DNA of 64,000 nt from an uncultured Spirochaetota bacterium. Lineage in GTDB: Bacteria > Spirochaetota > Spirochaetia > SZUA-6 > Fen-1364. Location of the stretch: positions 800,001 to 864,000 of the forward strand of contig CAWGAA010000003.1 in NCBI GenBank assembly GCA_963820525.1, in the 5' to 3' direction. Numbering within the stretch: the first letter of the stretch is position 1; every line of letters starts with the position of its first letter. The notes below the pieces were generated by a model. That model ran no database searches. It saw nothing but the letters and a program-made list of their open reading frames with translations, and was not told the DNA's origin. Of the stretch, positions 26,708 through 60,868 are shown piece by piece. The position numbers were made by a program, and so were the translations under genes.

Positions 26708-26732
26708 GAAATTCACACACAACGAGTTGAAC
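26708..26732 (+). other. Putative primary attI-like site; crossover G|TTGAAC at 26726
   Basis: Identity with the other three transposase cassettes begins exactly at this GTTGAAC, with no hairpin upstream. Confidence 0.75.
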
Positions 26733-26808
26733 AAAATCGCTCCGCGATGGCTTTCATCAAGCCTTAGTCTTCATTCGCCGCCATGAAAGCAAGACAGATG
26801 TTTCCCGC

Positions 26809-28011
26809 TTGTTATACAGCATGGGCTATATTGAAGCGGCAACGGTTTTTCCAAGACCCAAATTCGAAGTCGCCGATGTTTTCAGACAAAGCACCCAGTT
26901 ACTGAAAGGCATCAGTTATGATCATTGGAAAGTCGTAAACGCAATCATAAACTGCCGCGGTCCGAAATTGGGCGGCCATAAACTTGTTTGCCATGAATGC
27001 GGGTATGAACAGATATCCTATAATTCATGCAGGAACCGGCATTGCCCCAAATGCCAGGCGAGCAAGCAGGCGCAATGGGTTTACGAGCGGACACAAGAGC
27101 TTCTGCCCATAAAATATTTCCATATCGTCTTCACCGTCCCGGCGGTATTGAATTCCCTTATTCTCCAGAATAAAAGAGTGCTCTACGACATTCTCTTTCA
27201 CGCCGCAAACGAGACTCTTCAAGAAGCCGCGGGAAACCCGAAGAATCTCGGCGCGAAGATCGGATTTATCGCCATTCTCCACACCTGGAGCCAAAACCTA
27301 CTTGACCATCCACATCTGCACTGCATTGTTACCGGAGGGGGATTGAGCCGGGATAAATCCGCATGGATTGAAAGCAGGAACAACTTCTTTATCTCGATAC
27401 ACATTCTCAATCGATTGTTCAGAGGTAAATACCTGCATTATTTGAAACAGGCATATGCAGCAAAAGAGTTGAGTTTCTTTGGTAAGTTACGCAAGACAGC
27501 AGAGACAGCCGGGTTTGCAAAGGTGTTGGATGAATGTTATGCGAAAAAATGGATCGTCTACGCCAAAAAGCCGTTTTCCAATCCGTTACGCGTACTGAAA
27601 TATATAGGGCACTATACGCATCGGGTAGCGATCAGCAACAAACGGATATTGAATTTCACCGGCGGAAACGTGAGCTTTATATGGAAGGACTACAGGAATA
27701 GAAACCGGAAAAAGGTAATGACACTTGGCGCCTCCGAGTTCATGAGAAGATTTCTCCTGCATGTGCTGCCGGAAGGATTCAAGCGTATACGATTTTACGG
27801 CCTCTTGAGCAACGGGCACAAAAATGAGAATCTGAAATACATCCGTCGTTTGTTATGCATCGATCTAGAATCTCAACAGCGATCGTATGATTTTTTCTTG
27901 GAAGCGCCTGAGACTATCGAAAAAAGATGTCCCCGCTGCAAGAGCGCGAATATTCAGATTATTGAGCTCCCGCCGGAAAATACCGCTGAAAGTTATTGGA
28001 ACAGCGCGTAA
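26809..28011 (+). CDS. IS91-family (Y2/HUH) transposase, cassette copy 1
   Basis: Zn motifs CHEC and CRNRHCPKC, HUH motif HPHLH, YIGHY; ATG start may be 26821. Confidence 0.92.
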   Translation: MLYSMGYIEAATVFPRPKFEVADVFRQSTQLLKGISYDHWKVVNAIINCRGPKLGGHKLVCHECGYEQISYNSCRNRHCPKCQASKQAQWVYERTQELLPIKYFHIVFTVPAVLNSLILQNKRVLYDILFHAANETLQEAAGNPKNLGAKIGFIAILHTWSQNLLDHPHLHCIVTGGGLSRDKSAWIESRNNFFISIHILNRLFRGKYLHYLKQAYAAKELSFFGKLRKTAETAGFAKVLDECYAKKWIVYAKKPFSNPLRVLKYIGHYTHRVAISNKRILNFTGGNVSFIWKDYRNRNRKKVMTLGASEFMRRFLLHVLPEGFKRIRFYGLLSNGHKNENLKYIRRLLCIDLESQQRSYDFFLEAPETIEKRCPRCKSANIQIIELPPENTAESYWNSA

Positions 28012-28041
28012 TAAAACCCATAGCGCGGGCGGAGCGACTTC

Positions 28042-28236
28042 GTTCAACATAGGGTTTACGCTCCGCTCCCTCCGGTCGCTCCGGGCTTCGCCACATGCCC
28101 CTCTGGCACAGGGCTTGCAGATCAAATCTTCTTACGGTCCTCTAAGATGTGTGGTACACTCTTTTCTATGTTTTGCGGGGCAACCCCTGTGCCAGCCCTT
28201 CGGGACGGGGCATGTCGTAAACCCTTTACGTTATAC
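28042..28236. repeat. Outer attC-like site (transposase subtype)
   Basis: GTTCAAC...GGGTTTACG/CGTAAACCC...GTTATAC with internal stems. Confidence 0.85.
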
Positions 28237-28240
28237 GCCA

Positions 28241-28280
28241 TTGCGCCTTTGTGCATCAGCTGTATAATATGATGTTAGCT
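28241..28280 (+). promoter_or_regulatory. Carrier head: promoter plus inner attI-like site
   Basis: TTGCGC-16-TATAAT-ATGAT-GTTAGCT. Confidence 0.7.
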
Positions 28281-28337
28281 CCTTTAAAGAATTTTTACGT
28301 CATTATTATATCTCTGGATTTTGCTTAGAAATACTAT

Positions 28338-28838
28338 ATGTCACAGAAAATGATGACTAGAAATTATCGGTCTGCAATAATTATTTTTATTGGCATTTTG
28401 TTAGTATCGCTTTTGGGATATTTTTTAATAACCAAGAACACTATTGTTGAAGTGTTAAAGTATAGAGAATTCAAAAATGAGCTTGATTCTTTTATAAAGA
28501 ATTTGAATAAGAATGAATTTGAAAAAGCTGCCTATCAATTCCATTTTCTTGAAGCACAAAGTATTGGAATTGAACAATTAAAAAGAAACTTAGAGTCTAT
28601 AAAGAATAGATTTGGTAAAATAATTAATGGATCTAATAATATAACTTATTTAAAAACTAATAATGATAATATTTCATATTATGCCATTATTAGAATAGAG
28701 AATCCAAAAAATGATGGTGAAGTATTAGAAATAGTTGTGTATGAAGAAAATGGATACGGGAAACCTACTATTACTATATTTAATGGAATTGAATTTAAGG
28801 ATGAAATAAATCTCACAGATTGGGTAATAATGAATTAA
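28338..28838 (+). CDS. AT-rich membrane-anchored hypothetical protein (inner cassette)
   Basis: 166-aa ORF with N-terminal TM, followed by attC. Confidence 0.75.
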   Translation: MSQKMMTRNYRSAIIIFIGILLVSLLGYFLITKNTIVEVLKYREFKNELDSFIKNLNKNEFEKAAYQFHFLEAQSIGIEQLKRNLESIKNRFGKIINGSNNITYLKTNNDNISYYAIIRIENPKNDGEVLEIVVYEENGYGKPTITIFNGIEFKDEINLTDWVIMN

Positions 28839-28846
28839 GGAAAAGG

Positions 28847-28965
28847 AGCTAACATGCTGTTGAACTTGACGCCTAACACTTGTTGCAGCCATAGTTGCCT
28901 ACGTCCATAGAACCTTATTGCTTTTGGCTTCGGGTCGGCGGCGCAAGTTAACAGCGTTGTTATCT
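28847..28965. repeat. Inner classical-type attC
   Basis: AGCTAAC-ATGCT-GTTGAACTTG...CAAGTTAAC-AGCGTT-GTTATCT, extrahelical base in L box. Confidence 0.85.
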
Positions 28966-29013
28966 GGCCCCAAGTCCTTTCAAGATTGCCGTGGCCAATA
29001 GGAGAACCGATGA

Positions 29014-31026
29014 ATGAGTGCCAAACGTGCAGCTGTGACCGCAGGACTCCATCCAGAAGCGAACCTTTCACATTTCACTCCGTACGAGCAGGAACTAATC
29101 CAGAAGCAGTTCTGCACCGAGTTCTATGTAACAAACCAAGGCGGCGTAGTCGAGCTGAGCAGGACATCGGTCTACAGATTCTTCTTGATCAAGCCAACCA
29201 CAGTCTATCAGGAGCAGTTTAACCTCGATCGGGAGATTGTCGTTCTCTTTAGCGACTATCCGAATTTTGAGCCGCGTACGCTGGATGCTATTGAGGAAGC
29301 TTATAAAAGGTACCAGGAACTCCGCATAGAGAAGATATGCTCAGTTCTTATAAGTAGAGATGTGGAAATTGAGCAAAAAATAAAAAGCCTCCTGAAAAAC
29401 ACCAGTGAGAGCCAGATCATCGTTCCATTCCACTACAAGGAGTTGCAGACAGTCTCCGACCTATATTTCTTCAGGAATAGATTCAAAGCCCATTTCTACA
29501 GCAGAGACCTTTTCTCATATGAATCTGCACTCAAGAAGGACCTCTACTTTTTCGGCAGGAGTGATCTCGTTCACAAGGTAGTCAATAGACATCGCAGTGG
29601 AGAGAATTCCGCACTTTTCGGGCTGAGGAAAACCGGTAAGACCTCTATCATTTTCGGAATACGCAGGGTGCTAAACGCGACTGAGGAGAACTCTGTCTAC
29701 ATCGACTGCCAGGACTCCGGCTTCTATTTAAAGAGATGGAATCACGCCCTTCGCTATATAATCGACGAAATAAAATCTCAAAACCACGCGTCCGTAATCT
29801 TGTCCGATGAATCCGAATACACTGAGGATGGCTGTAGCGCGGCTTTTGCAAGAGACATATCAAAGTTGCGCAAGAAACTCGGCGGTAAGCCGATAATGAT
29901 CATTTTCGATGAGCTGGAGCGTATAACATTCGGGCTTTCTTCGGCCGAGCATTGGAAAACGGGGAAGGACTTCGTCCATTTCTGGAGAACTCTTAGGTCT
30001 CTGTTTCAGAAGCTGGAGAGCGTTTTTACCTATCTTATTGTTAGCACGAACCCTCGCTCGGTAGAGACGCCTATGGTCAACGGTGACGAGAATCCCATCT
30101 TTTCTCAAGTTCCATACGAATATATCCCGCCATTTGATGTACCTCAGACGAAGGAAATGGTCGAACGCTTGAGCCAGATCATGGGCCTTCACTTCGATGA
30201 GATTCTGTATTCGAAATTGACGGAGGATTTTGGAGGCCATCCATTTCTCATTCGCATGGTTTGCAGCGCGATCAATCGCCTTTGTGACTCAACGCGGCCA
30301 GTGAGAGTCGATAAAACCGTTTACGAGAAAGGCAAGCAACTCTTCAATAAAGAATATAGTAGCTACATAGAGATGGTGGTCACTGTTCTTCGAGAGAGCT
30401 ATTCCGACGAGTTCGAAATGCTCAAGTTCCTAGCGCTTGGCGACATACCGACCTTTATGGAGTTCGCCTCCGCATCTCGAGAGTACACAAATCACCTTCT
30501 CGGCTACAACATCGTTGATCAAAATAACCAATCCTACTCCTTCAAGATCGAATCGATCAGGGAGTATCTGATATCCGAGAACAAGTACAAGAAGCTAGGC
30601 TTAACAAAGAAAGAGATGCTTGCCGAGATATCCGAACGTCGCAATGAACTGGAACCCCGGCTGAGAAACTTGGTGCGCCAAATTCTGCTTGTGGCAATCG
30701 GCGAGTCTGCCGCCGCCACCCTGGTTCGCAATATCTACGGTGATCCGAGAAAAACTAGATATGCTGGCCTTTCCTACAAAGAATTGTTTAATCCAAATAG
30801 GGTAGATATCTATTGGGACGATCTTCAAAAGATTGTCTTAGCCGAATGGGACCACTTCCAGAATGTGTTCGAAAGAGACAGAGAGGCGTTCATCGTGAAT
30901 ATGAAGGCCGTCAACAAGTATCGGTCTGACGCACACGCAAAGGATATCTCTCCGGAAGAGATGGAACTCTTTCGAGTGTGCGCGACGAGATTGGAGACGC
31001 AGATACGAAACTTCTTCGGAGGATAG
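29014..31026 (+). CDS. P-loop ATPase (STAND/AAA-like) with possible C-terminal HEPN-like domain
   Basis: GLRKTGKTS Walker A, IIFDELE Walker B, GGHPF, C-terminal YRSDAH. Confidence 0.75.
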   Translation: MSAKRAAVTAGLHPEANLSHFTPYEQELIQKQFCTEFYVTNQGGVVELSRTSVYRFFLIKPTTVYQEQFNLDREIVVLFSDYPNFEPRTLDAIEEAYKRYQELRIEKICSVLISRDVEIEQKIKSLLKNTSESQIIVPFHYKELQTVSDLYFFRNRFKAHFYSRDLFSYESALKKDLYFFGRSDLVHKVVNRHRSGENSALFGLRKTGKTSIIFGIRRVLNATEENSVYIDCQDSGFYLKRWNHALRYIIDEIKSQNHASVILSDESEYTEDGCSAAFARDISKLRKKLGGKPIMIIFDELERITFGLSSAEHWKTGKDFVHFWRTLRSLFQKLESVFTYLIVSTNPRSVETPMVNGDENPIFSQVPYEYIPPFDVPQTKEMVERLSQIMGLHFDEILYSKLTEDFGGHPFLIRMVCSAINRLCDSTRPVRVDKTVYEKGKQLFNKEYSSYIEMVVTVLRESYSDEFEMLKFLALGDIPTFMEFASASREYTNHLLGYNIVDQNNQSYSFKIESIREYLISENKYKKLGLTKKEMLAEISERRNELEPRLRNLVRQILLVAIGESAAATLVRNIYGDPRKTRYAGLSYKELFNPNRVDIYWDDLQKIVLAEWDHFQNVFERDREAFIVNMKAVNKYRSDAHAKDISPEEMELFRVCATRLETQIRNFFGG

Positions 31027-31033
31027 TGGGGAT

Positions 31034-31147
31034 GGATAGCATGCGGTTGAAGCTGACGGTTTGCTTTTGTCTGATCGGTTCGCCATATCATGTTATAGAC
31101 TGTACTCTTATTAGCTGACTCGACGCAACTTAACCGCGTTTTTATAG
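31034..31147. repeat. Inner attC, degenerate
   Basis: GCGGTTGAAGCTG / CAACTTAACCGC arms; R boxes are GGATAGC and TTTATAG. Confidence 0.7.
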
Positions 31148-31196
31148 GCTGTAAATGGTAGAAAAAGGAAGTAGTTTACTACAAAGGCGCATCGGC

Positions 31197-31330
31197 GCAT
31201 AACGGCACATTGGCGTTCCGGTGCCCTACGGGCACCTTCGGGCTCCGCGGCGCTGCGGCGCGCCGCTCCGCCAAATGTCCCTCGGCCCTGTTGGCCTCTG
31301 GCCACTTCGCCAATGTGCTGCACGTTAAGT
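31197..31330. repeat. Outer attC-like site
   Basis: GCATAAC...GCACATTGGCG/CGCCAATGTGC...GTTAAGT. Confidence 0.85.
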
Positions 31331-31457
31331 GTAATGCCCGACGGAGCGCCCGCGGTATCGGACGACTAAGGTCGTCTTGCTTTGCATCCTTGGCTTGGAT
31401 AGGAGAAATGAATTGACATTAACATGAGATTCAACTTCTATTTATTGGGGTCACTGA

Positions 31458-34400
31458 TTGCCTGACGAAAATAATCAAGTTGATCATGAAAAACTGAATG
31501 CTCTTTTCGCTGAACAATACCGGTGGGCAAGTCTATCTGTAACCATCGAAGAGATTGCGAAAGAAAACAAATTACTTATTCGTGATCTTTCCAGATACGA
31601 TCAAACCATCGCTATTCCTCTCCTGGCAAGTCTCTTAACACTTCCCGAACTGCAATCGCATTGTATTCGTCTTGAAATTCTCAGTTGCCTTGGCAGTGGT
31701 GTATTGCCGCGGCAGTAAGAAAGCAAATATAAAGCAATTAGTTCGTTGGTTCTCCCAGATCGGCAAATCGCAATGTGTGACGGGTGAAGATCCGGCTGAA
31801 GATGTCTTCGTCTACCTAGTGCAGGATGTGCACGGAGACTACCGGCTTATCGGAGGTATATGGGAGTCGGCTGGCTTCTATACTCAGCGCGTTCTCGATG
31901 TAATTTCTACGATGCCTAACACCGGACAATTCGAGCAAATCAAGAGGAGTGTCCGCGCACTACTTATAATCTCCGATATAGTATGTGGCAAAGCTGGGCT
32001 GAACCGCTATCAGCTCGGCTCTGATGAACACCATTCGAAACTATCGCCGCGCATACTCGCAGGGCACAAACCCCTAATATCTAGTGTGACGATCTCCTTT
32101 GCCGAGCTCAATGAACACAGTATCACACCTGACGATATCGAGCCATTCCTCTTGCATCCGCAGATGAAAAAAGACTTACCTCTGCAGCAGATCGGCCTTA
32201 GCTATTTGGATCGCTGCCCGTTGATCGTGCATGGCGTGACGCATCTAACAGTTGCGCTCCCCTCAGCGCTATCCATTGCCATGCGAGACTACGTGATCGC
32301 GAAAGTTATTGAAGGAGGGCTAGTCAACACCTTTGATAGCGTACTTGCGCAGAACTATTCGAGCCTATTCTTCGACACACCCCTCCTTGGCGGGCCATTA
32401 CGAGCGCCAGTCCATTGGAAGAAGTCTGGCGCGCACCAATGGTCGAATTTCTACCTCAGGGTTGATGAGGGCTACTTCATTTCGTTCCACCTCTTCTTGC
32501 CATCGGTACAGACGCATCCCAATGGCGGTTTCAAGGGCGTTTATCGAGACGAGGGCGCCCTGACCGAAACGCTGCAAACCTCGATCAATGAGATTCTCAA
32601 TCATTTCGAAGGGCGGGTCGATTTCAAAGAAGGGCTCGTTGTTCTGGTCGGCTGCGGCTGGGGTAAAGGCTATGCCACCCAAGCTATTGAACTGGAACAT
32701 GAACATTGGCGATTCGAAAGTATGTCTGCGGCTGACCTCGTGCGACTCAGTTGGCTTGGAGATATGAACCCTGCCTACTTCTGGCGCATCCAAGACGGGC
32801 TGGAAGCTGTGAGGAAGGCTGGAGTCCAGATCGTCAATCCCAATGGGATTCTGAATCTGATTGGATGGGTGCGCAGCAACGACGGCCACTTCGTGCCACA
32901 TGCACAGTTACCGGAGGGCGAGATTTCGCCAGAACGGCCTTTGACGCTATACCCGCCCCTCAACCTTCTGCGGGAAGTGCGCGCTGACTCCGATCGTGGT
33001 TATGACCGCCACTGTGCGATTGATAACACTGGGACTTGCCACAACGTCCAGCATGCCTCGTCGAAGCCGTTCTTCAGCAGTGAAAGTGCTAGGCGCGTTT
33101 ATGCCTCTATGGACGACGTGCGAAACAGGACACTTACGTCAGTGTATGAGGGCAAGCTCAAACTTTGGCTGTCCGTGGCCACACCCAACATTGCTGAAAG
33201 AGATGTCGAGTACGGGCTTTGGGAAATGGCGGGCGAATGGCTGCATCGCATAGGAAATGCTCTTGATGAGCGCGGCGAGACTACAACTGAGACGCATAGT
33301 CTCAGGGTCTATATTGAATTCCGTGACGGCAATCCAACAAAGGAAAAGGGTGAAAAACCGGCTCTCAAAGACCTTTTCCCACTCTGTACAATCGAACCTC
33401 ATAGTGAGCCTAGCGCATGCAAAGCCGTCTTCCAAGCCGGATTTCTGGCTGGCTTTCGCATTGCCGAGAACGTTGCTGAGCGTCTCTTTGTTCGCACGCT
33501 ATCGCGGGCTTACCTGCATCTCCTTGGCGTAGAAGATTGCGACGGCGAGGCCGAGGCTGTTGAGGCCCTCGTTGTGCCCAACGATTTTGCTCGCAGCTTC
33601 CATCTTTTTCAAACGCAGCAATTCATAGATTATATCCGGGATACGCTACCCAAAAAGCTCATTGCCATCGATCCGGTGGATGATGCCGCAACGAGAATAG
33701 GTCTTGGCGGGCGTGTCCTTGAAAAAGGGCAGAGCAACAAGATCGAAGGCAGAGAAGCATGCACGGTTTTTCTTGGTAAGGTCGTCGATACCTTGCTAGC
33801 TGAGATATTCGAGGCTCTCGCCGCGTTCAGCCGGCTTTCAACACTCAAACGCCTTGTGGCCAATTGCGAGAAAGCAAATGCCGAGGAAGACCATTGGAAG
33901 CGGACATCAGCCGCTGTCCCAGGCCTACACGGCAACGAGCCAGATACCACCGATCGCTTTATCAAGCAGCTATCGAAGTTTGCTGGTGCTGCAATCGCAA
34001 GCCGTATCTTAACTGAGATCGCTTTATGCGTCTGTCCGGCTGGGGATGCCATACAGATATCGGATATCGAACTGAGCAAATTGATCGCACGCGCTGCGTT
34101 GGTGGTACGAATTGGTGGTCTATCAGATGCTATCTATTACAACGCACTCCCTCCGGAAGCTCACGATCTCGCCATTAGGCGATGTACTTTTTCGCGATGA
34201 ATTTGGGCACTTGGTGGTTGAACCTATGCTGGCTCGCGTGATTGGGGAAAAACTCATTGCCGACGCACCTTTGCAGAAGAGGAACTATGAAGATCCAGAA
34301 TTCTTACCTCGGCCAAAGAAAAGATTGGTGATGAATTCTGGAACATCTGGAATCTCGAGATGGATTTCAGCATAGATGAAGCCCGAAACATTATTGGCGC

Positions 34401-35247
34401 ATTGGAGGATAAAGGTATTGCGGATCACACCGCGATATTCACGATTAAGCAGAGCGAGTACCTATCTCTCGTTTGCTCTGACCAAGTCTCCGGAAATGCA
34501 GCCAGAAGGTTCCTTGATCAGTTTTCGCTTGCTGCGCGGCCACGCTGGAATATGCCGCCTATAGGCTTCAACGCCAAAGACATTTATCCTTGGCGTTTTG
34601 GCCGACGGCTGTCCTTTGTAACGCGCCCAATTCTGAAAGTAGATGATAGCGATGACCCTCTGCTGATCATTGCTCCCGCCTCTCTGAGAAATGGCTTTGC
34701 TTACGTTTTTGATGGTGCTTATAACGGACGGCTTGAGCAAGCATTCTTCCACAGCAAGGAAATGAGGAATACCTGGTGGGGCAAAGCAAGCGAAGGTCAC
34801 ACCTTCAATGCAGAGGTTGCGAAGGAGCTGTCGGAGAAAGGATGGCAAGTTCGCGAGAACGTCGGGATGCCCGAGCTCCTCAATCGCAAGATCGAGCAGG
34901 ACTATGGAGATGTCGATGTGCTTGCGTGGCGGACCGATCGCGAAGAGGTTCTGGTAGTAGAATGTAAAGACCTATCATTGGCACGCAACTATTCGGAGAT
35001 TGCCGCTCTGCTTTCGGACTATCAAGGTGCTGAATCTGAGGGCGAGCCAGATAAGCTCAGAAGACATCTCAACCGTGTCGAGTTTCTTCAAGACAATTGC
35101 GACCAGCTCCAGCACTTCACCGGAGTTCAGGGACCGCGGATTGTATCCTGTCTAGTTTTCAGCGGCGTTGTCCCTATGCAGTACGCTAAGATCGACGCTC
35201 TAGCAAATACTCATGTCGGCGGGATCCCGAACATTCTGGAACTTTAG
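31458..35247 (+). pseudogene. Large (~1260 aa) protein with C-terminal PD-(D/E)XK nuclease-like domain, about three frameshifts
   Basis: Overlapping ORFs 31458-31718, 31672-34200, 34112-34375 and 34360-35247; GDVDVLAW...VVECK motif. Confidence 0.65.
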
Positions 35248-35337
35248 TTTGACTACAACGACACCGAGTTCAGTATTGATCAGGCCGGTAACAAAGTAAC
35301 GAAGCGGGGTTGGGCTAGATTTCAGAGACCTTTAAAG

Positions 35338-35400
35338 CAGTAACAGGGGTTGAACGGTGAACGTCGAAGTACATCAATGTACTTTGACGAGCTTTTAACC
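35338..35400. repeat. Possible inner attC remnant
   Basis: TAAC-AGG-GGTTGAA...CGTCGAAGTACA/TGTACTTTGACG...TTTAACC, no downstream GTT. Confidence 0.4.
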
Positions 35401-35418
35401 ATGAGAGTCGGGCACTAC

Positions 35419-35551
35419 ACTTAACAGCACGTATACGCTTCGGCGCCCGGTAGGGCGCCTCGGGCTCCGCGGCGCTTCAGCGCGCCGCTACGCCACATGG
35501 CCTTCGGCCTTGTTGGCCTCGGGCCACGTCGTATACGTGCGGCCGTTGAAC
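35419..35551. repeat. Outer attC-like site
   Basis: ACTTAAC...GCACGTATACG/CGTATACGTGC...GTTGAAC. Confidence 0.85.
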
Positions 35552-35627
35552 AAAATCGCTCCGCGATGGTTTTCATCGAGCCCTAGTCTCCATTCGCCGC
35601 CCTGAAAGCAAGACAGATGTTTCCCGC

Positions 35628-51221: not shown

Positions 51222-51339
51222 GATAGAAAATACTTATTATAATTTTAGGTGTTAATTAAAATATACAAAAAAAGCATAATTTAATATCGCCTCAGCCGTC
51301 CATGGCTTCGGCGGAATTTTAAAAGGGGCTGGCTACGGC

Positions 51340-51429: not shown

Positions 51430-51433
51430 GCCA

Positions 51434-51473
51434 TTGCACCAAGAGGTATTTACTACATAGTATATTGTTATGC
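51434..51473 (+). promoter_or_regulatory. Carrier head: promoter plus inner attI-like site
   Basis: TTGCAC-16-CATAGT-ATATT-GTTATGC. Confidence 0.65.
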
Positions 51474-52787
51474 GCGCCTTTGCATCGATAGAACATGCAA
51501 ACGCGGCCATTGCCGTGCCGATGAAATTGCGAGCGCAGATTACGGGAGGCAATCGGCTTTAATAGCGCCGTTCGCCATGCTATGATCGTCGACAATAGGA
51601 AGATTGCAGTGGATCACGACAATGCGGGATCTAATCCAATTATCAGTCTGTCAAGCCATTTTCACGATAATATCGCCCAATACGAGGCAGACGGATATGA
51701 TGAAGCGAACGTGCGCGTTGACTTCATTGACAAAATGTTCGAACTCCTGGACTGGGACGTTCGAAACGACACCAATGCAAGCGAACGCTTTCGCGACGTT
51801 GTTCGAGAAGACAAGATTGAGATTGGCGGAAGAGAGAAGGCACCTGATTATAGCTTCAGAATTGGAGGGCAGAGGGTATTCTTTGTCGAAGCCAAAAAGC
51901 CGCACATTCGGATAGGAAGTGACCTTGGAGCCGCCTACCAGCTAAGAAGGTATGGCTACTCTGCGAAGCTTCCAGTTTCTATCCTAACCAACTTCAAGGA
52001 ATTCGCAGTATATGATACCCGGATTAAGCCGAACCACGGAGACGAGAGCGCCGTTGCAAGGCTCTTCTATTGCACATATGAGGACTATCCAGAACAGTTT
52101 CCGTTTCTCTATAGCACCTTTTCTAAGCCTTCCGTGATTAAAGGGGACCTCGACCGCTACGTCATAGACAATCGCACCAAGAAGGGTACTGCTGAAGTTG
52201 ACGAGGATTTTCTTTCATTGCTCTCGGGCTGGCGTAAAATCCTGGCAAAGCGAATTTCATCGCAGAACCCAGACATTGACGTCTTCCAGCTCAACCATGC
52301 AATCCAAGTACTTATTGACCGTATGGTCTTCCTTCGTATTGCAGAAGCTCACGACCTTGAAGAATACGCAACTCTCCAAAAAGCCGTCGAAAAAGCGAAC
52401 GGCTATTGGAATCTGAAAGGCGTGTTCGCCCTAGCCGATCAAAAGTACAATTCAGGGTTGTTTGCAGTGGATGATTTCCTTAATTCGCTAAAGATCGAGG
52501 ACAATGTTTTTCGGGACATAGTACAGGACCTCTATTATCCCAAGTGCCCGTATGAGTTCAGTGTTCTGCCTATAGAGATACTTGGTAAAGCATACGAGCA
52601 GTTTCTCGGACAAATCATTCGGCTAACTCCCTCACATCAAGTGAAGATTGAAGAAAAGCCCGAGGTGCGGAAAGCTGGCGGGGTCTTCTACACCCCAGAG
52701 TACATTGTGAGATATATCGTCCAATACACCCTGGGAGAGAAATTGAAGAAGGCATCGCCACAGGACGTGCCCGCTCTTTCCGTCCTA

Positions 52788-53926
52788 GTGTAGTGCGTCT
52801 CACGCTTCTTTACATTTGGCGATTTTGGCGAGGATGCGCTCAACCGGGGCACTCCAGACGAAGGCTTGCGGGTTTTGATTGTGATTCTCAAGGTACTGCT
52901 TAATAGCCGCAATCAGAGTCTGGACGTTGGGGAAAGTCCCACGACGAATTCTTTTATCGGTTATCTCACGAAACCAGCGTTCGACCATATTCAACCACGA
53001 ACTAGACGTCGGGATGAAATGCAGATGGTAGCGGGGGTGGCGTTGAATCCATGCTTTCACCCGAGCATGTTTGTGAGTCCCGTAGTTGTCCACGATCAGG
53101 TGAAGCTCCAATTCTGGTGGTGTCTCGACATCGATTTTTTTCAGAAACCGGATGAACTCCTGATGCCGATGCCGTGGCATGCAATCACCGATGACCCGTC
53201 CATCCAGCATGCTCAGAGCGGCGAACAACGTTGTCGTGCCGTTGCGTTTATAGTCGTGCGACTGACGAGCTGGAACACCCGGCCGCATGGGCAACAGCGG
53301 CTGGGTTCGGTCGAGCGCTTGAATCTGGCTCTTTTCATCCACACATAATACAAGAGCCTTATCCGGTGGATTCAGATACAGTCCGACTACGTCCTTCAGC
53401 TTCTCCACGAAGTTTTTATCACGACTGAGTTTGAACGTTTCCACCAGATGGGGTTTGAGATTGTGTTGTTTCCAGATGCGGCGAATACTGGCTTCGGAGA
53501 GTTTCTGTGCTCTGGCCATGCTCCGCGTACTCCAATGGGTGGCGTTTGCGGGAGTACTGTGCAAGGTTGCCTCTACCACTTTCTTGATTTTTCCTGCTGA
53601 GATGCGGGGATTTCTTCCCGGCCGGGGCGCGTCCTTCAGCAAACCCTCCACGCGCAGGGCGAGAAATCGCTGACGCCAAAGCTGAACCGTGGGACGTGAC
53701 ACGTGCAAAGCCCTGGCGATGTCCTGACTGTCTTGGCCATCAGCCGCTCGTGTGATGATCTGTGCGCGAATCACCTGCCGGTGAGGGAGACTTCTACTGT
53801 GTTTCCACGTGTCCAGCGTCCCGCGCTCGGCTTCGCAGAGTATAATCGCTTGGGCTTTCCTGCTCATTTCAAGGGTAGTATACAAGGAAGCGAGACATAT
53901 GTCAATAGATTTGTGACGCACTACAC
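52788..53926 (-). mobile_element. IS630-family insertion sequence
   Basis: IRs GTGTAGTGCGTC / GACGCACTACAC with TA duplication. Confidence 0.93.
52800..53867 (-). CDS. IS630 transposase
   Basis: CVDEKSQIQAL, IVDNYGTHK and SWLNMVE DDE motifs. Confidence 0.95.
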   Translation of the reverse strand: MSRKAQAIILCEAERGTLDTWKHSRSLPHRQVIRAQIITRAADGQDSQDIARALHVSRPTVQLWRQRFLALRVEGLLKDAPRPGRNPRISAGKIKKVVEATLHSTPANATHWSTRSMARAQKLSEASIRRIWKQHNLKPHLVETFKLSRDKNFVEKLKDVVGLYLNPPDKALVLCVDEKSQIQALDRTQPLLPMRPGVPARQSHDYKRNGTTTLFAALSMLDGRVIGDCMPRHRHQEFIRFLKKIDVETPPELELHLIVDNYGTHKHARVKAWIQRHPRYHLHFIPTSSSWLNMVERWFREITDKRIRRGTFPNVQTLIAAIKQYLENHNQNPQAFVWSAPVERILAKIAKCKEA

Positions 53927-55604
53927 TAGATCCGGCGTGTGGAAGCGGCAGCTTTTTGATCAGCGCTTACGATTATCTGCTTGGCTGGCACCTTGACTTA
54001 TACTCAAGAGAAGAGAACGTTAAGAAGGCACTAAAAGGCGGACGCATTTATCAATTAAAAGGAGGAGGCTACCGTCTCACAATAGAAGAGAAGCAGCGCA
54101 TTCTCCTGAACAACATATTCGGTGTGGACATAGATCAGCAAGCTGTAGAAGTCACCCGACTCTCTCTCCTGATTAGGCTAATGGAGGGCGAGAACCGCCA
54201 GAGTTCAGGCGAGCTCTTCAAACACAGTGACTTCAAGCTACTTCCGAATTTGAACGAGAACATCAAGTGCGGTAACAGTCTGATAGGAACTGATTTCTAT
54301 GCGGCCCAAAAGCAGGATCTCTTCGCGATGGACGACATGCGTCGAATTAATGCGTTTGACTGGAAGACCGAATTCCCTGCCGTGATGGATCGCGGCGGCT
54401 TTGACTGCGTCATAGGCAATCCTCCATATACCTACCTCATTCAAGAGGCCGAGCAAAAGTACTTTGTAGCGAAGTACAGGTTCCAAGACTACCAGAAGGA
54501 CCTATACCTACTGTTTCTTGAACGGTATCAGTTCTTGCTCAAGGCTGGCGGTCTACTTGGAGTAATAGTTTCCAATACTTGGATGCCTTCGCTCACGTAT
54601 TCGAGCATTCGCAGCTACCTGGTAACCAACTACATCTGGAAGAGGGTACTCCATCTGCCGGAAAAGGTGTTCGAAGCCGTTGTCGATACTCACGTGCTCG
54701 TGTTTGAAAAGGGAACTCCTCCCAAGAACCGAAATGTAGAATTTGTCGTTGACGAAATGCGACGAGAGAAGATCTCGCGGCTTCACATCCTGAACATGTC
54801 CGATCTGCCGTTGGATGGGGAACCAATAAACATCCAATCGAGTCCAAGGGAGATGGCGCTTTTCAAGAGGATCGAGAGGTCCTGCTCGCCTCTGTCAGAT
54901 CATTTTTCCGTTTTCAACGGCGTTAAGCCGTTCGAGAAGGGCAAGGGAAAACCACCACAAACCGAAAAGATTTGCCAGGAGAAGCCCTTCGTAGTCGAAG
55001 GCAAGAGGCCGGACGCGACTTGGTCCCCGTTGCTTCGCGGTGGCCTAATTGGACGGTATGTCAATCTCTGGAACAAGGACTATTGGATTCTTTACGGGGA
55101 CTGGCTTGCCGCCCCACGTGATCCGAAGATCTTCGACGAGCCGGAGAAGATCGCAATAAGACAAACGGGAGATTCGCTAATCGCAACGTTGATTGGTCGA
55201 GGATATGTCATGAGAAACAACATGCATATAATTCTTCCGAAGACAGGAAAGCTTGATCTAAGATATCTCCTGGGGCTGCTAAATTCTCGGCTGTTCGACT
55301 TCATATACACAACCATGAATCCCGAGAAAGGTGAAGCACTGGCGGAGGTGAAAAAGCAGCACGTCGAAAGGCTACCCATCCACATAGTTAGGCAAGATAG
55401 CGCTTCCGAGGTGTCTTTGGCAGATAAGCTGATCGCTCTCGTTGACAATATCTTGCAGGCCCGAAAGGAAGCAATTATACACGCAAAGACCGAGCATGAC
55501 AAGAAACTTGTTGATTCTCGTGTTGCCGAAATGCAGAAGGAGATCGACGAGATTGTATTCGCACTCTATGGCATGAATCGAGACGACCTTGAAATCCTGG
55601 GCAT

Positions 55605-55718
55605 GCATAACAAATCGTTGCAGTAGTCGCCTTTAGAGCCGTCTGGATCGGAAGTTGCAGTTCGGAATACAAGATGAGGCGGGTTGATGTGGCGGCGCTA
55701 CTGAACTCTATGTTATGC
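55605..55718. repeat. Inner classical-type attC
   Basis: GCATAAC-AAATC-GTTGCAGTAG...CTACTGAAC-TCTAT-GTTATGC. Confidence 0.88.
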
Positions 55719-55780
55719 TTCTTTTTGCTAAATGATCATGCATGTTGCAAAGCGCGGCAATATGATGGTAGCCTCCTAAA

Positions 55781-56962
55781 GTGATTCGAAGTAAACAAAA
55801 CCAACGCCCTTGGTATATAAACCAAGCCTATTGGCATGATCTTGCTACGAGATATATTGTGTCTGTTCAAAAAGTGAAAATGGGATCGCCTTATGCGGCA
55901 GAAATTGACGCTTTTCGCGAATTCAACATTGCTAAAGTCATCTTCGAAAGCAATCTCATTGAAGGGGCTGGACGTCCACTTGGTGAGACAAGGAAATTGA
56001 TTCTAGAATACTTTCCTCGATTCCCTTCAACTTTCACAGAATTCTATGGAACTGATGAGCGCGTGGATCTTCCACGGCTTCTCCTCAAGAATGGGCCATT
56101 TGCACAGATAAATGAGGAATTGCGCTCCTTGGGGTACGATCCAGCGCGCTTCACCCCAAGCATCAGCATGGCTGGGAGTTCAAGATCTGTAAAAGAGGTT
56201 GTTCAGCATCATAGCGCAATTCTCTATGCAATGTTTCATTCAATAGATTATCTCATCCATAGGACAATGTATGATTGGGCTCAGAGTCTTAAGACCGACA
56301 AACTTGATAAAAAATTGCAAAAAGAACTGGAAGAAGCAATCCTTAAGGAATACCCCCACGCAAGCACTCTAGAAGATATTCAAAGCCCAAAATTATTCGC
56401 CGAAAAAACAGTCAGCGAGTTGCATAAAACAATTGCTGAAGGAATTCTTCCAAACGATGCTAAGGTGGAAGCTGGAGAGTATAGAATTGATAACAGAATC
56501 GTCGGCTGGGACATAGTTTTCCCTTCACCAGAACTAATCTCCTTGATGATGCCGAAATTTGTGGATCGCGCAAATGACATTGTTCAGGGCATCCCTGTGA
56601 GAAAGCTGAACTTATTCGAGGCTGCAGCACGCATTTCGCATGATTTTGTTACAATTCATCCTTTTCCAGATTTCAATGGCAGGATCTCCAGAATTCTGAT
56701 GAACATGGTTTTACTCGCACATAATTGTCCATTTCCAGTAGCTCTTAAAGGCGGAAGCAAAGCCAAAGGCAAGTACTTTACCTCATTGAAGCGTGCGAAT
56801 AATGGCAATTTCATAGCACTATCCTCGCTTATCGCAATGCGGGTTACGGAGACATTCGAAGAACTCGACACGCATCTTAAGCGTGCTGGCCTTAGGAGCC
56901 TACTCACTTTGTCAAACCGGACACAGCGGAGCAACATTAGAAAATCAAACCCGAGAGATTAG
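55781..56962 (+). CDS. Fic family protein
   Basis: HPFPDFNGRISR Fic motif; SNLIEG inhibitory motif. Confidence 0.88.
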   Translation: MIRSKQNQRPWYINQAYWHDLATRYIVSVQKVKMGSPYAAEIDAFREFNIAKVIFESNLIEGAGRPLGETRKLILEYFPRFPSTFTEFYGTDERVDLPRLLLKNGPFAQINEELRSLGYDPARFTPSISMAGSSRSVKEVVQHHSAILYAMFHSIDYLIHRTMYDWAQSLKTDKLDKKLQKELEEAILKEYPHASTLEDIQSPKLFAEKTVSELHKTIAEGILPNDAKVEAGEYRIDNRIVGWDIVFPSPELISLMMPKFVDRANDIVQGIPVRKLNLFEAAARISHDFVTIHPFPDFNGRISRILMNMVLLAHNCPFPVALKGGSKAKGKYFTSLKRANNGNFIALSSLIAMRVTETFEELDTHLKRAGLRSLLTLSNRTQRSNIRKSNPRD

Positions 56963-56976
56963 GCAGAAGTACAGAA

Positions 56977-57088
56977 TCATAACAAGTTATGGGAGCTGTC
57001 TCCTTGAGTTCCGGTTGTTTTTATTTTGCATTGTTTGCTGTGTTTATAGAGGTCTGATTCGGCGGCGCAGCTCCACTCTATCATATGT
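56977..57088. repeat. Inner attC, right R box degenerate
   Basis: TCATAAC...TGGGAGCTG/CAGCTCCA-CTCTAT-CATATGT. Confidence 0.65.
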
Positions 57089-57135
57089 TGAAGAGATCTG
57101 GATAGAAATACATTATTATAATCTGGCGCAACGGC

Positions 57136-57205
57136 CTATAACCGCCCGTAATGTGCTTCGGTGCCCGCAAGAGCACCGAAGCACATTACGGGCAGCACGT
57201 TATAC
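57136..57205. repeat. Outer attC-like site (minimal unbranched subtype)
   Basis: CTATAAC...GCCCGTAATGTGCTTCGGTGC/GCACCGAAGCACATTACGGGC...GTTATAC. Confidence 0.85.
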
Positions 57206-57283
57206 GACATTTTTTGTTGCAAGGTTCTTTTCCATGTTTATACTGTTTAGTAATCGCCCTGCATTTATCGGAGGTTAATCTTT

Positions 57284-58036
57284 ATGGACCAACTAGTTTA
57301 TGATTATTTCACACCTGAAGTCATATCCAAGCTCAAAACCTATGTTTATAGGTTGATTGATCCTCGAAATGGTGAAACTTTCTACATTGGCAAAGGAAAA
57401 GGAAACCGTATCTTCTCTCATATTAGTGCAGAAAAGAAGATAGAAGGAGACGATTATAGCAATAAAATCAAGCGTATACGTGAAATACGTTTAGCTGGAT
57501 TTGAAGTGGCTCATGTTATTCATAGGCATGGAATGGATGATTCTACCGCTTTTGAAGTTGAATCAGCTCTTATTGATGCATATCCCGGGCTTACAAACAT
57601 TGTAGACGGCAGTGGCGGGAATGAATTTGGAGCAATGCATGCTAAAGAAATAATCAAGCGCTATTCTGCAGAACCAGCAATTTTCAAACATAAAGCATTA
57701 CTTATAACTATCAATAGAACCGCAACCGAACAGTCAATATATAACGCAACTCGATTTGCCTGGAAAATAAGCAAATCAAAGGTTAAGGATGTGGAAATAG
57801 TGTTATCAACTGTTCAGGGTTTATTTGTGGGAGCCTTTATCCCATTAAAATGGCTTGATGCCACTGCGGAAAACTTTCCTGATCGCGCACAAGGTGAGGA
57901 CCGACCTGGTAGAATTGGATTTATAGGCAAGGAAGCTCCAGATGATATAAAACGTATGTATGTGGGTAAACGTATACCAGATGGATTTAGACCGCGGGGA
58001 GCCGCCAATCCCATAATGTATACATGGTCCCGATAA
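57284..58036 (+). CDS. GIY-YIG (LEM-3-like) nuclease domain protein
   Basis: YVYRLIDPRNGETFYIGKGKGNR, ESALID, LTN; own TTGCAA-16-TATACT promoter-like motif. Confidence 0.85.
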   Translation: MDQLVYDYFTPEVISKLKTYVYRLIDPRNGETFYIGKGKGNRIFSHISAEKKIEGDDYSNKIKRIREIRLAGFEVAHVIHRHGMDDSTAFEVESALIDAYPGLTNIVDGSGGNEFGAMHAKEIIKRYSAEPAIFKHKALLITINRTATEQSIYNATRFAWKISKSKVKDVEIVLSTVQGLFVGAFIPLKWLDATAENFPDRAQGEDRPGRIGFIGKEAPDDIKRMYVGKRIPDGFRPRGAANPIMYTWSR

Positions 58037-58088
58037 TTTGCTAATCATACTACCGGAAGTCGGCTCATGACGGGTAACAAAAAACGCC

Positions 58089-58222
58089 GTATAACAGCGC
58101 GTAATGTGCATCGCCGCCCTACGGGCGGCTCGGGCTCCGCGGCGCTGCAGCGCGCCGCTCCGCCACATGGCCCTCGCCCTTGTTGGGCTCGGGCCACGTC
58201 ACATACGCGCGGCTCGTTGAAC
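58089..58222. repeat. Outer attC-like site
   Basis: GTATAAC...GCGCGTAATGTG/CACATACGCGC...GTTGAAC. Confidence 0.85.
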
Positions 58223-58298
58223 AAAATCGCTCCGCGATGGTTTTCATCGAGCCCTAGTCTCCATTCGCCGCCCTGAAAGCAAGACAGATGTTTCCCGC

Positions 58299-59501
58299 TT
58301 GTTATACAGCATGAGCTGTATTGAAGCGGCAACGGTTTTTCCAAGACCCAAATTCGAAGTCGCCGATGTTTTCAGACAAAGCACTCAGTTGCTAAAAGGC
58401 ATCAGTTATGATCAGTGGAAAGTCGTAAACGCAATCATAAACTGCCGCGGTCCGAAATTGGGCGGCCATAAACTTGTTTGCCATGAATGCGGGTATGAAC
58501 AAATATCCTATAATTCATGCAGGAACCGGCATTGCCCCAAATGCCAGGCGAGCAAGCAGGCGCAATGGGTTTACGAGCGGACACAAGAGCTTCTACCCAT
58601 AAAATATTTCCATATCGTCTTCACCGTCCCGGCGGTATTGAATTCCCTTATTCTCCAGAATAAAAGAGTGCTCTACGACATTCTCTTTCACGCCGCAAAC
58701 GAGACTCTTCAAGAAGCCGCGGGAAACCCGAAGAATCTCGGCGCTAAGATCGGGTTTATCGCCATTCTCCACACCTGGAGCCAAAACCTACTTGACCATC
58801 CACATCTGCACTGCATTGTTACCGGAGGGGGATTGAGCCGGGATAAATCCGCATGGATTGAAAGCAGGAACAACTTCTTTATCTCGATACACATTCTCAA
58901 TCGACTGTTCAGAGGTAAATACCTGCATTATTTGAAACAGGCATATGCAGCAAAAGAGTTGAGTTTCTTTGGTAAGTTACGCAAGACAGCAGAGACAGCC
59001 GGGTTTGCAAAGGTGTTGGATGAATGTTATGCGAAAAAATGGATCGTCTACGCCAAAAAGCCGTTTTCCAATCCGTTACGTGTACTGAAATATATAGGGC
59101 GCTATACGCATCGGGTAGCGATCAGCAACAAACGGATTTTGAATTTCACCGGCGGAAACGTGAGCTTTATCTGGAAGGACTACAGGGATAGAAACCGAAA
59201 AAAGGTAATGACACTTGCCGCCTCCGAGTTCATGAGAAGATTTCTCCTGCATGTGCTGCCGGAAGGATTCAAGCGTATACGATTTTACGGCCTCTTGAGC
59301 AACGGGCACAAAAATGAAAATCTGAAATACATCCGTCGTTTGTTATGCATCGATCTAGAATCCCAACAACAATCGTTTGAATCTTTCTCGGAAGCACCTG
59401 AGATCATTGAAAAACGATGCCCGCGCTGCAATAGTGCTAATATACAAATCATTGAACTTCCACCGGAAGAGGCATCTGAAAGTTATTGGAACAGCGCGTA
59501 A
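58299..59501 (+). CDS. IS91-family (Y2/HUH) transposase, cassette copy 4
   Basis: Protein identical to copies 2 and 3 in the ORF track. Confidence 0.92.
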   Translation: MLYSMSCIEAATVFPRPKFEVADVFRQSTQLLKGISYDQWKVVNAIINCRGPKLGGHKLVCHECGYEQISYNSCRNRHCPKCQASKQAQWVYERTQELLPIKYFHIVFTVPAVLNSLILQNKRVLYDILFHAANETLQEAAGNPKNLGAKIGFIAILHTWSQNLLDHPHLHCIVTGGGLSRDKSAWIESRNNFFISIHILNRLFRGKYLHYLKQAYAAKELSFFGKLRKTAETAGFAKVLDECYAKKWIVYAKKPFSNPLRVLKYIGRYTHRVAISNKRILNFTGGNVSFIWKDYRDRNRKKVMTLAASEFMRRFLLHVLPEGFKRIRFYGLLSNGHKNENLKYIRRLLCIDLESQQQSFESFSEAPEIIEKRCPRCNSANIQIIELPPEEASESYWNSA

Positions 59502-59531
59502 TAAAACCCATAGCGCGGGCGGAGCGACTTC

Positions 59532-59727
59532 GTTCAACATAGGGTTTACGCTCCGCTCCCTTTGGTCGCTCCGGGCTCCACCACATGCCCCTCTGGCACA
59601 GGGGTTGCAGGTCAAATCTTCTTACGGTCCTCAAAGATGTGTGGTACACTCCTGTCTATGCTTTGCGGGGGCAACCCCTGTGCCAGCCCTTCGGGACGGG
59701 GCATGTCGTAAACCCTTTACGTTATGG
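59532..59727. repeat. Outer attC-like site (transposase subtype)
   Basis: GTTCAAC...GTTATGG. Confidence 0.85.
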
Positions 59728-59731
59728 GACA

Positions 59732-59772
59732 TTGCGTCTTTGAGCATGTACAGTATAATCGTAATGTTAGGC
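59732..59772 (+). promoter_or_regulatory. Carrier head: promoter plus inner attI-like site
   Basis: TTGCGT-16-TATAAT-CGTAAT-GTTAGGC. Confidence 0.7.
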
Positions 59773-59813
59773 CCTGACCGAATTTATTCACACCCGTAAG
59801 GAGATTTCTCACA

Positions 59814-60560
59814 ATGGACATCCCACGTATATTCAACATCACTGAAAGTGCTCACCGCATCCACAACCCGATCACACCCGAAAAGCTTGCCACTCTCGGC
59901 GCTGCGCTGCGTCTGGAATCGGGGGCCCGAGTGCTCGACCTCGGCAGCGGTTCGGGGGAGATGCTATGCACCTGGGCACGCGATCACGGCGTCATCGGCA
60001 CCGGCATCGACATGAGCCAGTTGTTCACCGAGCAAGCGAGACTCCGTGCTGAAGAACTCGGCGTCGCCGATCAAGTCAAGTTCATCCATGGCGATGCTGC
60101 CGGCTATGTCTCTGACGAGAAGGCCAGTGTGGCAGCCTGTGTCGGTGCCACTTGGATCGCCGGTGGAGTCGTCGGCACTATCGAGCTTCTGGCGCGGAGC
60201 CTGCGCACCGGAGGGATCATCCTCATCGGCGAGCCCTACTGGCGGCAAACACCGCCGACGGAAGATGTTGCCAAGGGGTGTCTTGCCAACTCAATCTCCG
60301 ACTTTCTCATGCTTCCAGAACTTCTCGCGTCTTTCGGCCACCTTGGCTACGACGTCGTTGAAATGGTTCTGGCTGACCAAGACGGCTGGGACAGATACGA
60401 GGCGGCCAAATGGCTCACCATGCGCCGATGGCTTGAAGCCAATTCCGGCGACGAGTTCGCGAAAGATGTTCGAGCCAAACTGACCTCGGAACCCGAGCGC
60501 TACGCCGCTTACACGCGTGAATACCTGGGCTGGGGTGTGTTCGCGCTGATGCTGCGCTGA
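59814..60560 (+). CDS. Class I SAM-dependent methyltransferase (YjhP-like)
   Basis: VLDLGSGSGE motif I; MDIPRIF N-terminus and YLGWGVF C-terminus. Confidence 0.88.
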   Translation: MDIPRIFNITESAHRIHNPITPEKLATLGAALRLESGARVLDLGSGSGEMLCTWARDHGVIGTGIDMSQLFTEQARLRAEELGVADQVKFIHGDAAGYVSDEKASVAACVGATWIAGGVVGTIELLARSLRTGGIILIGEPYWRQTPPTEDVAKGCLANSISDFLMLPELLASFGHLGYDVVEMVLADQDGWDRYEAAKWLTMRRWLEANSGDEFAKDVRAKLTSEPERYAAYTREYLGWGVFALMLR

Positions 60561-60698
60561 TGCGTTGGCGCATCCGGCGGATCGTCAACGGCTGTGCCGC
60601 GCAACAGCTGGTGGCTCGCCGAGATGTGATTGCGCCTGAATTCATTTCTTATGGTCTAGTCATCCGTGCAATCAACAGAAAGCTCTGTCTCAAGCAGG

Positions 60699-60817
60699 GC
60701 CTAACGAATCGTTGCAGCTCTCCGCCGGAGCGCTGCTCGTGCAGTGTGGGCTTCAGCCGGGTAATGCGGTCAGAACGTGGTTTCATGTCGGGGCGTGAGC
60801 TGAACTCTATGTTACCT
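60699..60817. repeat. Inner classical-type attC
   Basis: GCCTAAC-GAATC-GTTGCAGCTC...GAGCTGAAC-TCTAT-GTTACCT. Confidence 0.85.
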
Positions 60818-60868
60818 AGCGATACTCATGCTAATGGGGTGACATTCAAAGACGCAGCGTCCCATAAC

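Follow-up and report, generated by a model that had tools for sequence, protein, structure and literature searches.

Classical integrons, such as those of class 1 and that of Vibrio cholerae with its repeats (VCR) and its integrase (VchIntIA, PDB 2a3v), are among the closest described counterparts of the cassette array that we analyse here. The array lies in 64,000 nucleotides (nt) of DNA from an uncultured Spirochaetota bacterium (contig CAWGAA010000003.1, positions 800,001 to 864,000; "the window" means this whole stretch) and is headed by a gene for a tyrosine recombinase. As in classical integrons, the array stands beside a divergent recombinase gene, its recombination sites (attC in the classical systems) are hairpins made of R''...AAC and GTT...R' halves, each cassette opens with the other half of its own R box, and the bottom strand is the favoured one. 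The differences are as follows: the recombinase lacks the insertion typical of the classical integrase IntI, the R stem has 18-23 base pairs (bp) and not 7, a T-G pair is fixed at position 11 and the tip of the site often consists of three hairpins. The central spacer differs as well, with 3-5 nt ahead of GTT and 0-1 nt behind AAC here, against 5-6 nt per arm in the classical sites as presented in the relevant passages of PMC5027507.

Other described systems share some traits with this locus. The bottom strand of classical attC sites has an excess of G:T mispairs (1.24 vs 0.39), according to the sections of Nivina et al. (2016, PMC5027507) on this subject, and there, as here, the bottom strand folds better through its wobble pairs. 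The published bias is a count averaged over sites, with no fixed place in those sections, whereas in the window it concerns a single invariant position of the R stem and the other mismatches are unbiased; the position-11 wobble is a sharp form of the published bias. The "integron-like subgroup" of tyrosine recombinases (Smyshlyaev et al., 10.1101/542381) comprises close relatives of IntI without the insertion, the nearest of them being, in the passages concerned, those in IS91 and IS3 elements, and in the genome of the window an IS91 transposase gene does adjoin the recombinase. These passages describe proteins, not arrays or sites, and here relatives of the recombinase head arrays that have no IS91 gene. 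The DUF1874 motif (Weinberg et al., 2017, PMC5737381) is a multi-stem element found in successive intergenic regions, which its authors consider a possible unusual attC; it differs in having no integrase beside it, as far as the part of that paper dealing with the motif goes. No Rfam family matched the array of the window: a search of 25000-62000 with E up to 1 gave nothing relevant, with two chance-level microRNA matches at 57132-57210 (E 0.8-0.9). Xer/dif systems and archaeal XerA resemble the locus in that XerA is the best full-length profile match of the recombinase; Xer sites are double-stranded with a centre of 6-8 bp, whereas the arms in the window lie 56-212 nt apart and are paired in hairpins. 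Xer arms have about 11 bp, and position 11-12 would be the outer edge of such an arm. A literature search of main texts, with few subscription journals covered, brought up no published account of arrays of this kind or of an attC stem with a fixed wobble. The locus presents an integron-type site of new design, paired with a recombinase without the IntI domain.

The pattern that led to this conclusion is in the ends of the units. Counting the G of GTT as position 1 and comparing the 25 nt at the head of each unit with the reverse complement of the 25 nt at its tail, we found that the 18 units between 26726 and 60868 start with GTT and end with AAC (38995-40338, with AAT, is the exception) and that their ends pair over 15-23 nt. 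As the initial annotation had it, position 11 is A at the start and C at the top-strand end (G in the reverse complement, hence A/G below) in 18/18 units, which would give a T-G wobble on the bottom strand. Since the four transposase units are copies, the distinct units number 15. A clear repeat of its own is present in 16 of the 18; the two weaker units are 38995-40338, with no hairpin after its AAT end, and 51423-57142, whose end fits the start at 40343 (19/20) better than its own (15/20). The repeats as first listed were right about A/G at position 11 and missed a second A/G at position 8 of the transposase unit (four minus-strand matches, two mismatches each), as well as further differences at positions 6 and 12 of 28230-31203; several other units also have one mismatch more than was listed. 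Neither are the repeats entirely private, as had been claimed, because the consensus GTTATnnGCCATTGCGCC is common to many units, although the ends of one unit match each other far better than they match those of other units.

This end-to-end covariation, also claimed before, is borne out. Among 33 distinct units, taken from the window and from related DNA, the agreement at positions 5-18 was 0.79-0.97 per position for own ends and 0.24-0.88 for non-own pairs, and 10000 reshufflings of the ends never gave the observed own-end match score. For the 20-mer of the transposase unit, 8 matches were found vs 0 expected. The bare GTTRRRY core was found 95 times in the whole window vs 90 expected, so it is not enriched. 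Mismatches elsewhere in the R stem were 6 of the bottom-strand G:T type, 7 of the top-strand G:T type and 18 transversions; besides position 11 there is no general strand bias among them (6 vs 7).

The interval from the AAC of one unit to the GTT of the next is a self-complementary core of 56-182 nt, the first bases of which (L'') pair with the last (L'), and 3-5 unpaired bases ending in C separate L' from GTT. The terminal repeats are the R' and R'' halves of attC-like hairpin sites. For folding in the circle form, we placed the core between the last 22 nt and the first 22 nt of the unit and used DNA parameters. The predicted structure consists of the R stem, a one-sided bulge of 3-4 nt, the L stem and up to three hairpins. 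AAC/GTT borders and folding are found in all sites, and the crossover point was placed solely from the shared cassette borders. The bottom strand was more stable than the top in 14/14 sites of the window (mean -57.7 vs -51.3 kcal/mol) and was also favoured in 20/20 sites of the complete genome G399, whose array is described below. Its mean energy was -57.7 kcal/mol in the circle form vs -44.9 in the array context. Both comparisons are in keeping with the proposal of the initial annotation that the substrate would be a bottom-strand fold of single-stranded DNA (ssDNA) formed in the excised circle, the repeats behaving as a stem that is whole only where the two ends of one unit come together. 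What moves can be read from the transposase cassette: its 181-182 nt core is constant in the six genome copies, with four different contexts before GTT and six different ones after the core, and because the core is constant while the flanks differ, the mobile unit consists of a cassette and the core behind it, with the permutation point at GTT exactly as in integron cassettes.

The genome of the window (G000) contains its own control, a very large classical integron at about 683-822 kb of contig C1 (about 135 kb). It has at least 105 attC sites by pattern search, with 5-nt spacers on both arms, and two IntI genes, one of 411 amino acids (aa) beside the array and one of 323 aa elsewhere on C1 (410 and 449 bits with TIGR02249, cut-off 265). 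The ends of its cassettes pair over 12-13 nt only, R-stem pairing declining beyond position 12-13, and 1 of 74 distinct units has A/G at position 11. Given both features in the C1 integron, paired ends are the normal outcome of an attC cut in its R box, and the stem may exceed the textbook 7 bp. The earlier statement that canonical attC needs only a 7-bp R box has to be qualified to this extent. The peculiarity of the window lies in a longer stem and a mismatch that is fixed. The C1 integron also contains many copies of a cassette of about 291 bp.

Related arrays were collected from two sources, the relatives of the recombinase in Spirochaetota metagenome-assembled genomes (MAGs) and a metagenome scan with the hairpin-core motif. 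L-numbers designate MAG or metagenome contigs, and G399 and G149 are complete genomes; scans of these two and of the distant elements left position 11 unconstrained. A/G was found at position 11 in 3/3 further complete units of the same array, in 17/18 complete units of L018, L019, L020, L123, L142, L150, L165 and L175, in 21/21 units of G399 and in 3/3 candidate units of G149, so that 62 of 63 units obey the rule. The first observation is confirmed and holds in other genomes: conservation of position 11 in homologous arrays, on which the initial annotation had staked its claim, is kept with recombinases 39-71% identical. In G399 the stems have 18 bp, and positions 6, 7, 9, 10 and 13-18 are free to vary and do so in concert (agreement of own ends 0.95-1.0 over positions 4-18, of non-own pairs 0.23-0.49 at the variable positions), while G1, T2, T3, G8 and position 11 never vary and T12 is present in 20/21. 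The same border design, with A/G at position 11, was also seen in more distant elements: Terrimonas L027, Neorhodopirellula L077 and L099. Two scan matches, L042 and L085, were discarded as chance matches with no hairpin after AAC.

The recombinase gives 191 bits with the IntI profile TIGR02249 (cut-off 265), in two stretches, and lacks the additional domain of IntI; its best full-length profile match is XerA (NF040815), at 201.6 bits below the cut-off of 220. The nearest solved structure by sequence, V. cholerae IntI4 (PDB 2a3v), aligns at residues 12-170 and 195-265 only, leaving about 43 IntI4 residues without counterpart, and the same gap appears in the alignment with the two IntI proteins of G000 itself. 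The insertion in question is said, in the work on the VchIntIA structure, to hold the extrahelical bases. Relatives in Spirochaetota MAGs are 71, 69, 53, 51 and 48% identical to the recombinase, and those of G399 and G149 are 39 and 38% identical (tblastn). The relatives in L019, L020, G399 and G149 (39-71% identity) share the gap, and those of G399 and G149 pass the XerA cut-off (222.3 and 223.5). The array-linked recombinase reading frames of these two genomes (L102 1219-2319 and L101 964-2118) have about 95-112 extra N-terminal residues that match none of the profiles used. Integrase gene, attI-like region and co-oriented cassette array form one locus in the window, and the same layout is found in L020, L099 and G399; in these four cases the first cassette lies 100-350 nt from the recombinase gene.

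On balance, we favour the view that this is the array of an integron-like system with long-hairpin sites and an IntI/XerA-like recombinase without the extra domain, in which the wobble most likely marks the folded bottom strand. The site consists of an R stem of about 18-23 bp, a one-sided bulge of 3-5 nt, an L stem and a variable tip, often of three hairpins. Strand exchange would occur within the conserved GTT, which is AAC on the bottom strand, so that insertion would cut the site in two: the R' arm (GTT and about 17 nt) would become the first bases of the cassette and the R'' arm would remain at the cassette end, ahead of the hairpin core. The two arms would pair again in the excised circle, or in ssDNA with the cassette looped out, and because of this each unit would have its own covarying terminal repeat. 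With A in R' and C in R'', only the bottom strand can form an unbroken stem (with T-G), the top strand carrying an A-C mismatch in mid-stem. The T-G pair, together with the invariant G8 and T12 and about one helical turn from the cleavage point, would then be the mark by which the recombinase tells the folded bottom strand, a role like that of the extrahelical bases in classical attC.

Several observations weigh against this view. When position 11 was repaired in silico to a Watson-Crick pair, the bottom strand was still favoured (-60.9 vs -55.9 kcal/mol); since the repaired sites keep this preference of about 5 kcal/mol, the wobble is dispensable for the energy bias. A one-base bulge of the L stem is predicted in 4/14 bottom-strand folds, so that the wobble need not "replace" extrahelical bases; the idea of such a replacement, raised in the initial annotation, does fit a recombinase without the IntI insertion. 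In the array context, R'' of one cassette pairs with R' of the next, and excision would therefore have to manage with a shorter stem. One unit of L165 (889-1534) has A/T at position 11, and in the Bacteroidota element L029 the A/G stands at position 8 instead. In L018 and L019, 1.2-5 kb of other genes separate the recombinase from the array. Finally, contigs of public sequencing runs, at low depth, contained no circle junctions and gave no read evidence of recombination, circles or the strand used.

The position-11 A/C might instead act through stability alone, weakening the top-strand hairpin and sparing the bottom one with no read-out by a protein. The G:T bias of classical attC is explained in this way in the corresponding sections of PMC5027507, and the in silico repair of position 11 gained more for the top strand (4.6 kcal/mol) than for the bottom (3.2). 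Stability needs no fixed place, yet the mismatch sits at position 11 in all but one of the units across recombinase lineages down to 39% identical; the remaining R-stem mismatches have no strand bias, and the bottom strand is ahead even when the wobble is removed. The place fixed across distant lineages and the lack of bias elsewhere in the stem argue for a role of the wobble beyond stability, and we consider stability alone rather unlikely as the full explanation. Much less probable still are two independent sequence preferences of double-stranded DNA, with pairing irrelevant (for example A and a -35-like TTGCGC at the start, and a second AAC triplet at the end). They would agree with the presence, in 6 of 16 unit starts (28230, 38995, 40343, 51423, 59721 and 62711), of TTGCRY at 12-17 followed 15-18 nt later by a TAnnnT hexamer, and with T12 and T13, which give the R'' arm AAC at positions 13-11 in 20 of the 33 distinct units. 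A11 is, however, equally fixed in units without TTGCRY (GTTAAGTGTAATGCC, GTTAAATGACAGCGC) and in most of G399, the positions on either side covary strictly, and a scan for sigma-70 promoters did not single out the cassette leaders or unit starts.

Could the repeats be terminal inverted repeats of the transposon type, or nicking marks for an HUH transposase of the IS91 family that moves the units? The window has four transposase cassettes, whose product scores 420 bits with NF033538 (cut-off 125) and matches Pfam Y2_Tnp and Zn_Tnp_IS91, as a Y2 HUH transposase does. Three of them (35545-36867, 37490-38812 and 58216-59538) are mutually identical and 96% identical to 26726-28048, and the cassette encoding the HUH transposase is the sole one multiplied within the array. 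Its end is ...GTTCAAC, which we take to contain a tetranucleotide used by IS91 as target. We nevertheless give this explanation the least credence of those considered here, as an IS91 gene was found in none of 12 loci or stretches with related recombinases or arrays and the same site design, the repeats vary from unit to unit within one array, and there are no target duplications, the borders being the shared GTT and AAC with a hairpin core after each unit. The transposase copies themselves carry these cassette borders, with GTT, AAC and hairpin. The absence from the 12 loci also takes the HUH protein out of the core system, and nothing was found that points to a nicking mark at position 11. 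Since relatives of the recombinase head arrays without an IS91 gene and the first cassette adjoins the recombinase, we conclude that the recombinase is part of the array and that the IS91 transposase rides in it as a cargo cassette. A single insertion sequence (IS) made of recombinase and IS91 gene, landed at the head of a foreign array, was rejected for this lineage on account of those relatives and of the ordinary cassette borders.

Some units of the array have a second layer. Classical attC sites of the type found on C1 lie inside them (five in Table 1; also at about 39929, 41699 and 60790), and a nested unit is built of one or two classical cassettes between a leader (about 45 nt) and a trailer (about 55 nt, ending in the R'' arm). 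Within the leader are the R' arm, the hexamer TTGCRY at 12-17, a second hexamer that resembles a -10 box, and ...AAT|GTTA; unit starts with both TTGCRY and TAnnnT have a second GTT at +37 to +46. Judging from these motifs, cassettes may bring a promoter of their own. In contig L175 (3368-4404) the leader and trailer of 59721-60868 enclose a different cargo, the switch falling exactly at AAT|GTTAG and TCTAT|G(T/C)TACC, which suggests that some units are mobile landing pads for classical cassettes. More tentatively, and as a possibility that we rate well below our preferred view of the site, these could be parts of a distinct integron class, present in Spirochaetota, Bacteroidota and Planctomycetota at least, in which Xer/XerA-like recombinases that never gained the IntI domain read the folded bottom strand via the fixed T-G with G8 and T12, and in which some cassettes, with a promoter-like leader and an attI-like GTT, would be landing pads for the classical integrase of the cell, forming a two-tier integron.

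The features are collected in Table 1. At about 26 kb of the window G+C drops from 0.59-0.66 to 0.37-0.55, and the recombinase gene sits at this border. From 26726 onward the genes run on the plus strand and include the four IS91-family transposase copies, a STAND NTPase, DNA methylases and HNH, Fic and GIY-YIG proteins; many array genes have no Pfam match at E <=0.001. The array extends past the window to about 76931 (window numbering), with three more complete units there.

Table 1. Recombinase gene, cassettes, hairpin cores and inserted elements, in window coordinates. "Mismatch" refers to the pairing of the two ends of a unit.
Feature	Position	Strand	Remarks
Tyrosine recombinase, 265 aa	25826..26623	-	IntI/XerA-like, without IntI-specific insertion; Pfam Phage_integrase 1.6e-39
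attI-like region, recombinase start codon to first GTT (...ACAACGA|GTTGAAC)	26624..26725	.	From sequence; kept in C1 copy with deleted recombinase gene
Cassette 1, IS91-family transposase	26726..28048	+	End repeat 20 nt, A/G at positions 8 and 11; NF033538 420 bits
Hairpin core (L''...L' and spacer), 181 nt, moves with transposase cassette	28049..28229	+	Same 181-182 nt core after 6/6 genome copies
Cassette	28230..31203	+	End repeat 23 nt, mismatches at 6, 11, 12; two classical attC inside, 28850-28962 and 31038-31139
Hairpin core, 120 nt	31204..31323	+	
Cassette	31324..35425	+	End repeat 19 nt, sole mismatch at position 11
Hairpin core, 119 nt	35426..35544	+	
Cassette, IS91 transposase copy 2	35545..36867	+	
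Hairpin core, 182 nt	36868..37049	+	
Cassette, 318 nt	37050..37367	+	End repeat 15 nt
Hairpin core, 122 nt	37368..37489	+	
Cassette, IS91 transposase copy 3	37490..38812	+	
Hairpin core, 182 nt	38813..38994	+	
Cassette with decayed end (AAT)	38995..40338	+	R'' arm, then only TGGA, then next GTT; without hairpin core
Cassette	40343..43846	+	End repeat 16 nt; nested classical cassette 41721-43803
Hairpin core, 85 nt	43847..43931	+	
Cassette	43932..46275	+	End repeat 18 nt, mismatches at 10 and 11; classical attC 44948-45052
Hairpin core, 125 nt	46276..46400	+	
Cassette	46401..47233	+	End repeat 18 nt
Hairpin core, 122 nt	47234..47355	+	
"Empty" cassette, 102 nt	47356..47457	+	End repeat 19 nt
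Hairpin core, 124 nt	47458..47581	+	
Cassette, HNH protein	47582..48674	+	End repeat 18 nt
Hairpin core, 124 nt	48675..48798	+	
Cassette, 321 nt	48799..49119	+	End repeat 15 nt
Hairpin core, 123 nt	49120..49242	+	
Cassette	49243..51346	+	End repeat 21 nt
Hairpin core, 76 nt	51347..51422	+	
Composite unit	51423..57142	+	Ends agree 15/20, position 11 A/G; IS630-type IS 52800-53921 (-); classical attC 55608-55714 and 56980-57077
Hairpin core, 56 nt, simple hairpin	57143..57198	+	
Cassette, GIY-YIG protein	57199..58095	+	End repeat 20 nt, mismatches at 9 and 11
Hairpin core, 120 nt	58096..58215	+	
Cassette, IS91 transposase copy 4	58216..59538	+	
Hairpin core, 182 nt	59539..59720	+	
Cassette	59721..60868	+	End repeat 23 nt, mismatches at 11 and 12; 45-nt leader, classical cassette 59766-60705 with attC, trailer
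DDE-type IS, directly after R'' AAC; AAC on either side	60869..62585	-	504-aa transposase, DUF772 and DDE_Tnp_1_6
Hairpin core of cassette 59721-60868, IS-displaced, 122 nt	62589..62710	+	
Next cassette, leaves window, end at 64167 (window numbering)	62711..64000	+	Position 11 A/G

A few further observations concern the surroundings of the array and its copies elsewhere. The sequence GAAATTCACA occurs three times around the recombinase gene, at 25776-25785 and 25813-25822 (past the stop codon) and at 26708-26717 (just before the first GTT), and these copies may be binding sites. At 40321-40360 an R'' arm, TGGA and an R' arm follow one another with no hairpin between, which looks like a simple double-stranded site; TATAATTGGA|GTTAT from this stretch also precedes the recombinase-adjacent first cassette in L099. 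The last unit of the array (end 76931, window numbering) is followed immediately after AAC by foreign sequence, as is the case at the DDE-type IS. Two further small arrays of this kind are present on C1 of G000. One (3094904-3096990) has an internally deleted recombinase gene, a transposase cassette and then a cassette also found at 76362-76931 (window numbering); in the other (2097892-2099259) the transposase gene has a TAG stop. Among the public-run contigs, X2 and X4 join 55633 to 57050, 57054 or 57055, which corresponds to the loss of the nested Fic cassette, and X1 joins 52818 to 53897, corresponding to the absence of the IS630-type element; both are weak, with sides of 26-34 nt. Joints between hairpin cores of different sites were also seen in X4 contigs, with sides of 21-33 nt, and are possibly from other organisms.

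Accounts of how the integrases of integrons acquired the ability to recognise folded ssDNA invoke the extra domain of these enzymes and the extrahelical bases of the site. In the window, a naturally occurring relative lacks this domain and seems to act on hairpin sites of another build, and one wobble pair offers a simple and mutable candidate for an identity mark. The nested classical cassettes suggest traffic between two recombination systems in one cell. Integron finders for which the IntI domain is a requirement probably miss arrays of this kind, and reservoirs of cassettes may be under-counted as a result.

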